From the NCBI GenBank assembly GCA_035526025.1, contig DATLDE010000005.1:32192-96191 (forward strand): a DNA stretch of 64,000 nt. Reading direction: 5' to 3'. The notes under the pieces are model-generated. The model was not told where the DNA came from. It searched no databases and was given only the letters and a program-made list of their open reading frames with translations. Of this stretch, positions 6,289 to 42,576 are shown in pieces. Position 1 is the stretch's first letter. Every line of letters begins with the position of its first letter. Origin of the DNA: Candidatus Limnocylindrales bacterium (GTDB taxonomy: Bacteria; Patescibacteriota; Microgenomatia; Levybacterales; UBA12049). The position numbers and the translations under genes are program-made.

Positions 6289-8545
<2,257 letters not shown>

Positions 8546-37453: not shown

Positions 37454-37549
37454 AATTTATCCCAATCCTGAGCTAGTCGAAGGATCGTGGACTATAAGTA
37501 TATCAAAAATAGAGCACACAATACCAAAATTTATGTTAAAATAATTATT

Positions 37550-37885
37550 ATGAAACCGATAATAAACTACGAAGATTTTTCAAAGCTGGATATACGTGTT
37601 GGAACTGTAATTGACTGTATTGAGAAAGAAGGATCGGATAAGCTTCTCAGGCTTACAGTTGACTTTGGCGAAGAAGGAACTCGAAATATCCTTTCTGGAA
37701 TAAAGCAATGGTACAAGCCTACTGACCTCATAGACAAACAATTCGTATTTGTTTTCAACCTTGCACCAAGAAAAATAATGGGAGAAGAATCTGAGGGAAT
37801 GATATTGGCAGCTGATGGTAAAAATGGCAAACCACAGCCCCTTAAACCTAAATCAAAAGCTCCCAATGGTTCCGCGATTTTATAA
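37550..37885 (+). CDS. csaA: tRNA-binding domain protein (CsaA/Trbp111/MetRS C-terminal OB-fold-like)
   Basis: IINYEDFSKLDIRVGTVIDCIEKEGSDKLLRLTVDFGEEGTRNILSGIKQWYKPTDLIDKQFVFVFNLAPRKIMGEESEGMILAADG is a canonical tRNA_bind domain. Start taken at ATG 37550 (MKPIINYE). The track ORF begins at 37487. Confidence 0.75.
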   Translation: MKPIINYEDFSKLDIRVGTVIDCIEKEGSDKLLRLTVDFGEEGTRNILSGIKQWYKPTDLIDKQFVFVFNLAPRKIMGEESEGMILAADGKNGKPQPLKPKSKAPNGSAIL

Positions 37886-37931
37886 ACTATATTGTTGATT
37901 TTTATGCAATTTTAGTATAAACTCTCGTCTT

Positions 37932-39005
37932 ATGAGACTTGAGAATAGATATAATTTAAATTCTCACATTGAAAATAAACTGCGTCCACCACACTCACCT
38001 GACGTAAGAAAATATACAATTTTTGATTTTAGGCAAGTTGGAAGCAAAGAAAAACAACCATTTGTAAACCTACTTCCAGGAAAAGTTACATTTTGGCCTG
38101 AAGATCACTCTGTTATTGTACAAGGAGATAAACGGTCGCTAAGACCTAAGGAGCAAGCTTTATTACGCCAATTGCTAGAACAACCCAATTGCATAATTTC
38201 CTCTGAGGAATTAAGTGGAAAAATCTGGCCCAATAGACCATATAGGCCAACGCAGTTACCACTGCTAGCGCTACAGTTGCGAAGAAAAATTGAGCCAACT
38301 CCAAAAAAACCAGTTATCATTCAAACGGTTAAAGGGGAAGGTTATAGATTTGGCGATAAACGTGAAACTAGAACAGAAGTTGAAATAAAAATTGCAAAAG
38401 ACATCGTCTATCTGCCCGATCAAAGAAAAATTGTGGTAAATGGAAAAGAAAAAAAATTGTCAAAGCCTCAAGATGCATTTTTAGAAATGCTCATCGAAAA
38501 AAATCATGAATCTGTCTCCGGTGAAGAAATATACGATCATGCATGGCCGAGTGAACAATATAGCTTAGTCCGGCTATCAACGCTTGTTAGAAGTTTACGT
38601 GAAAAATTAGAACCAGATCCGCTCAAACCAACAATTATTCTAAGGGTTCGAGGAGAGGGCTATAAACTCGCTGATTTAGATTCGTCTAAAGAAAAAGAGC
38701 TAGAGCTTGCAGTAGGTAAATTAAGATATTCTCATGGACAAAGAAATATTACTTTAGGTAAAGATGTAGTCGTACTAACAGAGAGGGAGCATTCAGTACT
38801 ACTGGCATTCTGCGCAAGTCCAGGCGAAATAATGACTCGCGATGAATTAAAAAGAAGAGCTTGGGGAGATGACTCAAATGTTCAAATAGTAAACGTCAAT
38901 AATTATGTGACGAAAATAAGAAATAAATTAGGCAAAGATTCGATTAGAAAACATTTTGGAATAGGATATAGCCTCAATCTAGCTGAAGGTTTTGATAATA
39001 AATAG
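37932..39005 (+). CDS. DNA-binding protein composed of three tandem OmpR/PhoB-type winged-helix (Trans_reg_C) domains, with no receiver domain
   Basis: Three repeats of about 90 aa, each ending in the wHTH wing signature: ...ISSEELSGKIWPNRPY...LALQLRRKIE...IIQTVKGEGYRFGD; ...VSGEEIYDHAWPSEQY...LVRSLREKLE...IILRVRGEGYKLAD; ...MTRDELKRRAWGDDSNVQIVNVNNYVTKIRNKLG...IRKHFGIGYSLNL. Confidence 0.7.
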   Translation: MRLENRYNLNSHIENKLRPPHSPDVRKYTIFDFRQVGSKEKQPFVNLLPGKVTFWPEDHSVIVQGDKRSLRPKEQALLRQLLEQPNCIISSEELSGKIWPNRPYRPTQLPLLALQLRRKIEPTPKKPVIIQTVKGEGYRFGDKRETRTEVEIKIAKDIVYLPDQRKIVVNGKEKKLSKPQDAFLEMLIEKNHESVSGEEIYDHAWPSEQYSLVRLSTLVRSLREKLEPDPLKPTIILRVRGEGYKLADLDSSKEKELELAVGKLRYSHGQRNITLGKDVVVLTEREHSVLLAFCASPGEIMTRDELKRRAWGDDSNVQIVNVNNYVTKIRNKLGKDSIRKHFGIGYSLNLAEGFDNK

Positions 39006-39024
39006 CTTGAACCGCAACATAGCT

Positions 39025-41930: not shown

Positions 41931-42389
41931 TTATTCGATTTCTCCGGACAGTCTTTCTGCAATTGACTCTATCTTTTCATTTAAATCATTCTGATGCTCA
42001 ACCCACCCTTTCTTATTCCAAACCTCAACAAATCGTTCAATTCCTGCAAAGACAATTTCATTATCAATTTTCGCAAATTCTCTTAAATATTCAGGTATCA
42101 CGAACCTTCCTTTATTGTCCAACTCAATGTCTGTTGCATTTCCCAAAAGAAATCTTTGCAATTCCCGTGTATTTTTATTTGTAAAAGGTCTACCTGTTGT
42201 CCCTTCAAGTAAAGTCTTCCAGTTATCAAGCGAAACAACGATCAAGCAATTCTCAAATCCTTTTGTAATTATCAACCTATCACCCAACACTTCTCTAAAT
42301 TTCTTAGGAAGTGATGCCTGATGTTTTTCACTTACTTTACTTTCATACTGCCCGATTAACATATTTACTGCCTCTACTTTTATTTCCAA
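41931..42389 (-). CDS. mraZ: transcriptional regulator MraZ
   Basis: 152 aa with a duplicated MraZ/SpoVT-AbrB fold (MLIGQYESKV...KGRFVIPEYLRE). First gene of the dcw cluster. Confidence 0.88.
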   Translation of the reverse strand: MEIKVEAVNMLIGQYESKVSEKHQASLPKKFREVLGDRLIITKGFENCLIVVSLDNWKTLLEGTTGRPFTNKNTRELQRFLLGNATDIELDNKGRFVIPEYLREFAKIDNEIVFAGIERFVEVWNKKGWVEHQNDLNEKIESIAERLSGEIE

Positions 42390-42475
42390 ATATAATTCGT
42401 TATGTGTGCTTTGCAGACGAACTACATTTTCCTACTTTTACCTACAATTAATATTTTGAACCTAATATAGCAGGT

Positions 42476-42524
42476 TGTCAACAGACATTGTTGCCTGTCT
42501 AGTGGTTCCAACCAAGTGGAACAA
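42476..42524. promoter_or_regulatory. inverted and direct repeats upstream of mraZ (possible MraZ operator/promoter region)
   Basis: GTTCCA-ACCAAG-TGGAAC is a perfect 6-bp inverted repeat at 42505-42522. It overlaps direct AGTGG repeats at 42501-42505 and 42515-42519. CAACA-gacat-TGTTG lies at 42478-42492. A TTGACA is present on the minus strand at 42481-42476 but has no properly spaced -10. Confidence 0.3.
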
Positions 42525-42576
42525 CAAAATGTAGTGTAGTATATGTAAGAAATGTGTAAGAGTAGAGATTTGAGGA

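Follow-up and report, generated by a model that had tools for sequence, protein, structure and literature searches.

The winged helix-turn-helix (wHTH) effector domain of the OmpR/PhoB type is the commonest output module of bacterial two-component systems, and in the canonical OmpR/PhoB regulators phosphorylation is needed to line up two effector domains head-to-tail on a direct repeat. The sites of these regulators are direct repeats bound head-to-tail, the C-terminal sheet of the upstream domain being packed against the N-terminal sheet region of its downstream neighbour (PMC4832192). For PhoP, the site has been described as a 7-bp motif followed by a 4-bp spacer, and the arginine of the wing (T-x-R-G-x-GY) inserts into the minor groove (PMC4832192). 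Here, we describe a protein, P0001, that is built from three such effector domains and has no receiver domain. Its gene lies among genes for division and the cell wall (dcw genes) in a 64-kb stretch of a metagenome-assembled genome (MAG; contig DATLDE010000005.1), referred to throughout as the window, and all positions are those of the window unless a locus is named. The gene and the parts of its product are the following.

37932 to 39005, + strand: coding sequence of the receiver-less triple wHTH protein (open reading frame, three PF00486 matches, identical NCBI protein, orthologues P0002, P0003 and P0004).
37932 to 38063, + strand: N-terminal leader, residues 1 to 44, predicted to be disordered and without a family match.
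38064 to 38357, + strand: wHTH domain 1, residues 45 to 142, EPDP-loop type, Lys in place of the wing Arg, 52.3 bits.
38364 to 38675, + strand: wHTH domain 2, residues 145 to 248, EPDP-loop type, wing Arg retained, 48.5 bits.
38685 to 38981, + strand: wHTH domain 3, residues 252 to 350, terminal type, 52.4 bits.

P0001 consists of 357 amino acids plus the stop codon and is encoded by a single uninterrupted open reading frame (ORF) with an ATG start; the identical protein in NCBI is named winged helix-turn-helix domain-containing protein. The ATG at 37932 is supported as the start by the M-x-L-E opening that the orthologues share. Pfam gave three matches to Trans_reg_C (PF00486; 145 bits in total) and, at E<=1, no other family, PF00072 included. 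Each of the three segments, scored singly, was above the PF00486 gathering score of 26.2 bits (bit scores in the list above). Response-regulator models of NCBIfam matched P0001 via their C-terminal ~100 positions only and far under their cut-offs, which argues that the protein has no receiver domain. Moreover, neither a phospho-acceptor Asp nor a BTAD or TPR domain was detected in P0001 with Pfam and NCBIfam, and the highest 19-residue Kyte-Doolittle mean, 0.97, does not indicate a transmembrane segment. A preliminary description of the window, made from its letters, had proposed a protein of three OmpR/PhoB wHTH domains and nothing else, without a CheY-like receiver, BTAD/TPR domain or transmembrane segment, and the profile and hydropathy results agree with it on each of these points. 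The three domains account for 86% of the chain with gaps of 2-3 residues between them, and the protein is basic (isoelectric point, pI, 9.5).

All three domains carry the landmarks L-S/T-x-x-E-x-x-LL, a Trp after helix 2, LRxKL in helix 3 and G-x-GY in the wing. The wing sequences are QTVKGEGYRF, LRVRGEGYKL and KHFGIGYSL in domains 1, 2 and 3, respectively, so that the position of the wing Arg is occupied by Lys, Arg and Phe. The complete wing signature that the preliminary description gave to each repeat is therefore present in domains 1 and 2, while domain 3 has G-x-GY only, without T-V-R. In domain 3, helix 3 is linked to the wing by a short loop, and the recognition helix is canonical (V-x-V-x-x-x-V-x-K-I-R-x-KL). 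This type of terminal domain is distinct in every orthologue: the short loop takes the place of the E-P-D-P loop that precedes the wing, and the wing Arg is lacking in all four. No Pfam family was found in residues 1-45; the leader motifs common to the orthologues are M-x-LE, PPH and EK-PFVN. A resemblance by eye of KLRPPHSPDVRKYTIFDFRQVGSKEK to KLEPDPLKPTIILRVRGEGYKLADLDSSKEK raised the idea that the leader (45 amino acids) is a vestigial half wHTH; this was ruled out by shuffling (p = 0.38 for P0001 and 0.08-0.95 for the others) and by domain hidden Markov model (HMM) scores below 0.

AlphaFold gave a model too poor for use from a 2-sequence alignment (predicted local distance difference test, pLDDT, 59) and a usable one, with a mean pLDDT of 84.3, from a 24-sequence alignment of multi-wHTH proteins. 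In the latter, a four-strand sheet, three helices and a C-terminal hairpin are predicted three times over; in domain 1 these are strands in residues 45-69, helices at 72-83, 91-98 and 108-120, and a hairpin at 130-140. Residues 1-40 are modelled as disordered (pLDDT <50), the junction of domains 1 and 2 (residues 144-148) has low confidence, and a stretch of 8-11 residues connects the final strand of each domain to the initial strand of the following one. Foldseek against the PDB returned only OmpR/PhoB-type effector domains (YycF/VicR/WalR, KdpE, PhoB, OmpR, ToxR and CadC), the best with template modelling (TM) scores of 0.8-0.89 and root-mean-square deviations of 1.6-2.0 Å over ~100 residues; none of these PDB matches was a solved chain spanning more than one of the three domains.

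P0001 and the proteins P0002, P0003 and P0004 make up the dcw-slot subfamily. In an exhaustive HMMER search of 1.84 billion representatives, only four proteins had E <1e-30. P0002 (358 amino acids, 48% identity) is encoded on a contig with the order YdjM (-), tRNA_bind (+), wHTH (+), transpeptidase (-). P0004 (locus L009; 29% identity, three domains) and P0003 (locus L008; 34% identity, two domains only) occupy the same slot, between csaA and ftsI, inside the dcw clusters of their loci. Thus, the order csaA, then wHTH gene, convergent with ftsI, is found in four assemblies including the window, and the position next to ftsI pointed out in the preliminary description is a conserved one. A scan of GTDB representatives with the family alignment yielded no further orthologues, a metagenome scan for orthologues yielded ordinary response regulators only, and a profile search of a word-indexed database yielded only P0001, P0002, P0004 and canonical regulators. 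The linkers in the four orthologues are 0-3 residues long.

Comparison of P0001 and P0002 domain by domain paired domain 1 with domain 1 (score 242), domain 2 with domain 2 (228) and domain 3 with domain 3 (292), domain 3 being the best conserved. Domains 1 and 2 are mutual closest paralogues, and the two-domain P0003 consists of a domain of the first type and one of the third type, domain 2 being the missing one. Moreover, the same three-domain protein was found in independent JGI, ENA/NCBI and Logan assemblies. Because collinear orthologues (P0002 and P0004) occupy the same slot, we conclude that the three-domain fusion is, judging from these comparisons, genuine and old, and not the artefactual joining of separate genes that would have undone the preliminary description.

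The slot itself varies. The closest relative, L005, whose FtsI is 90% identical, has 36 bp between ftsI and csaA and no wHTH gene; in L004, from a Levyibacteriota MAG, the slot is taken by an unrelated ORF of 197 amino acids (7680-8273, minus strand), for which no Pfam, PADLOC or PHROG match was found. Missing in the one and replaced in the other, the wHTH gene does not behave as a core dcw gene. By contrast, every one of the five related loci has csaA on the opposite strand, and the wHTH gene alone is variable, which argues against a head-on insertion of both genes together. From this distribution we conclude that csaA on the + strand is ancestral and that the wHTH gene is the occupant of a variable slot.

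Between the window and L008 or L009, FtsI, CsaA, MurE, RsmH and MraZ are 62-79% identical and FtsL 51-62%, whereas the slot protein is 29-34% identical only, which indicates a several-fold faster evolution. The persistence of full-length orthologues at 29-48% identity in the same slot speaks for the fold being under purifying selection. The composition of the gene is native (G+C content, GC, 0.364; GC at third codon positions, GC3, 0.240), and a recent horizontal transfer was rejected on this ground. A defence or phage origin was likewise rejected, with no PADLOC hits and, as the sole PHROG hit, the wHTH part of a response-regulator-like profile.

We also noted a short AT-rich palindromic repeat (GAATTAAGG...CCTTAATTC, TTAATTCTTAATTC) on both sides of csaA in L005 (959-994 and 1361-1469), which is intergenic in L009 (11768-12050), in L004 (~4727) and in the window (~53370). 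It may be a small element of the repetitive extragenic palindrome (REP) or miniature inverted-repeat transposable element (MITE) kind and could be connected with the loss of the slot gene in L005.

P0001 belongs to a larger set of proteins. Domains were counted with a custom domain HMM built from the hits in the best 150 cluster representatives, a list that the three-domain query biases toward multi-domain proteins. Within it, 33 representatives had one domain, 91 had two, 18 had three and 8 had 4-7; altogether, 117 of the 150 had at least two (2-7), and in 39 of the 150 wHTH domains covered at least 70% of the protein. Linkers between adjacent domains had a median of 8 amino acids (interquartile range 3-13; 163 pairs). 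Proteins consisting of Trans_reg_C domains only, with 3, 4-5 or 6 of them, were confirmed with Pfam (P0004, P0005, P0009, P0006 and P0111); P0004, P0009 and P0011 are three-domain members, P0006 has 4-5 domains, and the third domain of P0005 is truncated. In P0015, P0030 and P0055, a STAND NTPase and TPR repeats come after two or three N-terminal wHTH domains. The multi-domain architecture, which the preliminary description had regarded as unusual, is thus numerous. The array genes lie in varied contexts, including mobile-element-like islands, a Gram-negative-type locus (MipA, sulfatase) and a 4-Mb genome, and the close paralogues P0005, P0013 and P0016 have contexts unrelated to dcw. We conclude that receiver-less tandem arrays of this kind are widespread in metagenomes and apparently uncharacterised and that P0001, by its domain content, is an OmpR/PhoB-type wHTH protein of this class.

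Some members of the class have further peculiarities. The group combining wHTH domains, a STAND/AAA NTPase and TPR repeats is large, with many matches of ~1000 amino acids in the HMMER search, and its layout resembles that of AfsR or MalT, but with the wHTH duplicated and without a BTAD hit. Very long arrays occur among P0008, P0036, P0111, P0116 and P0065: P0111 has 6 domains in 692 amino acids and nothing else, another protein has 7 in 1064 amino acids, and in P0008 7 domains are scattered through a giant protein of 6306 amino acids. Around P0005 (L010, 1-17026) are encoded, among others, an RHS/YD-repeat toxin, Fic, a PLD-like nuclease, a TraG/DUF87 ATPase and HTH_3 regulators, and the locus looks like a mobile or conflict-related island.

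Taken together, the architecture, the folds and the short linkers lead us to favour, at somewhat better than even confidence, the reading that P0001 is a sensor-less, constitutively active, sequence-specific DNA-binding protein that forms a single-chain head-to-tail array. Because head-to-tail packing places the C terminus of one domain near the N terminus of the next, linkers of nearly zero length are compatible with a DNA-bound state that is assembled in advance; with three effector domains fused at gaps of 0-3 residues, the tandem array would be pre-assembled. The chain would lie over three successive major grooves, covering ~30-33 bp with a 10-11 bp period. As the three recognition helices are not alike, the half-sites may differ from one another as well, which would fit the unsuccessful search for a simple triple repeat (see below). 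The divergent C-terminal domain, with its short loop and no wing Arg, probably provides a conserved anchor contact, and the activity of the protein would be set by its amount, made from its own promoter, rather than by a signal. What the data show are the architecture, the folds, the short linkers, the conservation, the variable slot and the fast evolution, whereas DNA binding, geometry, constitutive activity and any targets are things we infer for P0001.

The upstream DNA is consistent with such a promoter. The spacer before the wHTH gene is 46 bp long and follows csaA directly.

37895 to 37921, + strand: promoter-like TTGATT-N15-TATAAA, ending 10 nt before the ATG at 37932.
37550 to 37885, + strand: csaA-like tRNA-binding gene (PF01588, 91.8 bits), the upstream same-strand neighbour of the wHTH gene.

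L008 and L009 share the TTGATT-N15-TATAAA motif and its spacing, and the motif is probably the own promoter of the wHTH gene, giving a very short leader; csaA is a possible partner in co-transcription. A generic promoter and terminator scan around the wHTH gene gave no more hits than shuffled DNA, and a generic sigma-70 scan missed both this motif, which its spacer of 15 explains, and the -10 element of csaA. The latter is an extended -10, TGTTAAAAT (37534-37542), 7 nt before the ATG, and comparable motifs precede csaA in L004, L005 and L009. The -10-like elements thus stand 7-10 nt before the ATGs of csaA and the wHTH gene (TATAAA at 37916-37921 for the latter), no Shine-Dalgarno sequence is visible, and equivalent sites are found in L004, L005, L008 and L009. 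These positions suggest a lineage with leaderless or near-leaderless mRNAs.

In a strict scan of 3.5 kb of intergenic window DNA (7-mers, at least 6 of 7 matches, period 10-12), no triple direct repeat was found. A looser scan returned a single array, GTAGG-N5-GTAGG-N5-GTAG, in the mraZ leader at 42422-42445 with a 10-bp period; shuffles of the DNA yielded on average 0.055 such triple repeats in 3.5 kb. Conservation of the mraZ leader runs through successive blocks in four genomes (window 42422-42561, - strand; L008 12150-12400; L009 12470-12730; L004 4095-4290), and the leader contains the following elements.

42544 to 42561, - strand: direct repeat TCTTACA-N4-TCTTACA, 11-bp period.
42522 to 42534, - strand: palindrome CTACATTTTGT(A/T)G, a conserved block of the leader.
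42475 to 42481, - strand: -35 element TTGACAA, a conserved block of the leader.
42453 to 42460, - strand: -10-like element TTCAAAAT, a conserved block of the leader.
42422 to 42445, - strand: three GTAG boxes, 10-bp period, conserved in four genomes.

The GTAG array lies just downstream of the promoter elements TTGACAA and TTCAAAAT. The MraZ operator as reported has three or four 4-nt boxes, GTG(G/T), 6 nt apart at the mraZ promoter (PMC12957436), and the array has this geometry and position with GTAG as the box instead of GTG(G/T). Moreover, the array is kept in L004, where the slot has no wHTH gene, and, with all three boxes, in L008, where the slot protein has two domains. On account of its geometry, its position at the promoter and its conservation in L004, the GTAG triple repeat is best assigned to MraZ, and its boxes look like a variant of the GTG(G/T) operator in the candidate phyla radiation (CPR). 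As an operator of the wHTH protein it was rejected on the same grounds. Thus, the triple direct repeat that had been proposed upstream of mraZ does exist, but MraZ fits it better than P0001 does.

The layout of the TCTTACA repeat, 7+4, is typical for sites of the OmpR family, and in every genome there are only two repeats. It occurs once in the 64 kb, and at least one match was obtained in 27/100 shuffles; the conservation of TCTTAC across genomes is a stronger signal than this rarity. We rejected it as the operator of the wHTH protein, given that it is also present in L004, has no third repeat and does not correlate with the number of domains. A link between the repeat and the protein is unsupported rather than disproved, the L004 contig being only 10.8 kb long, so that a paralogue elsewhere is possible.

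Several observations weigh against a constitutively active, sequence-specific DNA-binding array. No operator for the wHTH protein was found in the 3.5 kb of intergenic DNA, the sole triple repeat being better explained by MraZ. The Arg that PhoP inserts into the minor groove is Lys in domain 1 and Phe in domain 3, and the recognition helix of domain 1 (LPLLALQL) is unusually hydrophobic. The predicted TM score (pTM) of the model is 0.48, so the relative orientation of the domains is not reliably predicted; of the tandem packing raised in the preliminary description, the model bears out three folds with short linkers and leaves their mutual arrangement unreliable. In addition, the gene is dispensable, being missing from the closest relative L005, and its fast evolution also fits relaxed constraint. 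Finally, within the literature searched, we found no description of, or experiment on, repeated Trans_reg_C arrays.

Three other functional readings were considered. The position of the gene inside the dcw cluster in four assemblies fits a second regulator dedicated to the dcw operon, which would bind the mraZ leader at the TCTTACA repeat or at the three GTAG boxes, with or against MraZ; the PhoP-like 7+4 layout of a repeat that is found once in 64 kb and the numerical match of three boxes to three domains also fit. However, both leader elements are conserved in L004, whose slot lacks a wHTH gene, and L008 combines a two-domain protein with three GTAG boxes and two TCTTAC repeats. Moreover, 4-nt boxes with 6-nt spacers, three times over at the mraZ promoter, are the layout reported for MraZ, more than a quarter of the shuffles contain a TCTTAC-type match by chance, paralogues lie outside dcw clusters and the closest relative does without the gene. 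We thus found no evidence for the regulation of dcw genes considered in the preliminary description and regard this reading as distinctly unlikely. An architectural or nucleoid-associated binder of low specificity that coats, bends or bridges AT-rich DNA would account for the basic pI of 9.5, a domain number that ranges over 2-3 within the family and reaches 7 in the class, recognition helices that diverge fast between orthologues, the missing operator and the small, AT-rich genome. We consider it unlikely, since a core chromatin protein would not usually be absent from the closest relative, only four representatives of this very rare family were found at E <1e-30 among 1.84 billion, and domain 3 has a canonical and better conserved recognition helix.

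A decaying or neutral accessory gene, or one whose domains now serve protein-protein contacts, is suggested by the identity of 29-34% next to flanks at 62-79%, by presence, absence and replacement in the slot, by the domain lost in P0003 and the one truncated in P0005, and by the lost wing Arg residues. Against this, intact ORFs of ~350 amino acids without frame disruption are retained where the neighbours are only ~70% identical, Pfam scores of 48-52 bits are maintained in every domain, conservation extends to the start and the promoter-like motif, and the model is confident; we therefore hold decay to be quite improbable. As for an artefact of assembly or annotation that fuses separate genes, nothing was found in its favour; the source is a metagenome-assembled genome. 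The single uninterrupted ORF, the recovery of the same three-domain protein from the JGI, ENA/NCBI and Logan assemblies and the orthology of each domain with its counterpart make it extremely improbable. The sensor-less, pre-assembled DNA-binding array is the reading that we retain.

With respect to the neighbourhood, the dcw block on the minus strand comprises mraZ, rsmH, ftsL and ftsI, followed by the wHTH gene and csaA on the + strand; beyond csaA, the minus-strand block continues with ydjM, murE, a Cu-oxidase_4 gene (PF02578), a Mur ligase gene, murA, mraY, ftsW, murG and ftsA. From 18399 to 63968, all large ORFs are on the minus strand except csaA and the wHTH gene, so that the earlier statement that these are the only two + strand genes in a 24-kb minus-strand block was correct and understated. 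No histidine kinase is present near the wHTH gene (neighbours YdjM, CsaA, FtsI, MurE, FtsL, RsmH and MraZ), nor at L008 and L009. CsaA orthologues of 111 or 108 amino acids occupy the same position in all related loci, and the mechanical ORF start of csaA (37487) is most likely too long, the ATG at 37550 (MKPIINY) giving 111 amino acids as in the orthologues. Similarly, the mechanical start of mraZ (42389) is most likely too long and the true start the ATG at 42362; the MLIGQYE start is conserved at the DNA level in four loci. Between the stop codons of the wHTH gene and ftsI, which converge, lie only 19 bp (39006-39024); no terminator-like hairpin is visible, and the two transcripts may overlap.

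FtsI of the window shares 76% identity with its counterpart in a Candidatus Levyibacteriota MAG and 90% with that on a fragment of a MAG labelled Lysobacterales (L005); Levyibacteriota is a member of the Patescibacteria/Microgenomates group. The NCBI label of the identical protein is Candidatus Limnocylindrales bacterium (Chloroflexota). Gene content, a window GC of ~36% and the nearest FtsI sequences point to Levyibacteriota, and the labels are probably errors of MAG taxonomy or binning. Levybacteria have genomes of ~1 Mb with few regulators. To our knowledge, CPR bacteria in general have few regulators, and this lineage has no cultured models.

Three hard-wired effector domains with almost no linker would be a natural test of the model in which phosphorylation drives assembly; if our reading is true, a footprint of ~30 bp with three phased half-sites, requiring no signal, is expected. 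Moreover, arrays of 2-7 domains, some fused to STAND modules, are widespread and would offer a tractable system for modular DNA recognition. A doubtful extension is that tandem OmpR-type wHTH arrays are an unrecognised class of modular single-chain DNA readers, in which each unit reads one half-site of ~10-11 bp and the number of domains sets the length of the operator; the dcw member of Levybacteria would then be among their very few transcription factors and might act on the division cluster beside MraZ. Were this true, phosphorylation-driven dimerisation would be bypassed. P0001 is in any case flagged as one candidate transcription factor of CPR bacteria. The practical importance is limited, given a tiny subfamily, a gene that the nearest relative can do without, and no evidence for a functional tie to cell division.

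Among known systems, P0001 is closest to the OmpR/PhoB response regulators (PhoB, OmpR, KdpE, PhoP, WalR/YycF/VicR and MtrA), with which each unit shares family and fold and would be expected to share the binding mode, i.e. head-to-tail on direct repeats with a 10-11 bp period; unlike them, it has no receiver, phospho-acceptor Asp or adjacent kinase and carries three effectors per chain instead of one. ToxR and CadC, which are membrane-anchored, and the SARP/AfsR regulators, which combine a wHTH with BTAD, likewise have an OmpR-type wHTH without a phosphorylatable receiver, but theirs is a single wHTH joined to a transmembrane segment and periplasmic sensor or to BTAD, whereas P0001 has neither and three wHTH domains. 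MraZ is the DNA-binding regulator of the same cluster, and its operator is a triple direct repeat with a 10-bp period, the kind of site that the preliminary description had in mind for P0001; however, its fold (AbrB/SpoVT-like, PF02381) is unrelated, and the GTAG boxes are present with or without the wHTH gene. Tandem PF00486 domains with short linkers are shared with the multi-Trans_reg_C proteins of metagenomes (P0004, P0009, P0011, P0006, P0111, P0015, P0030 and P0055). Compared with the other arrays, which lie in unrelated contexts or are joined to NTPase and TPR sensor modules, P0001-P0004 of the dcw slot form a tiny, fast-evolving branch with a conserved, disordered leader of 40 amino acids and a last domain of the terminal type. 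If such arrays are indeed modular readers, the poly-zinc-finger proteins would be a loose analogy.

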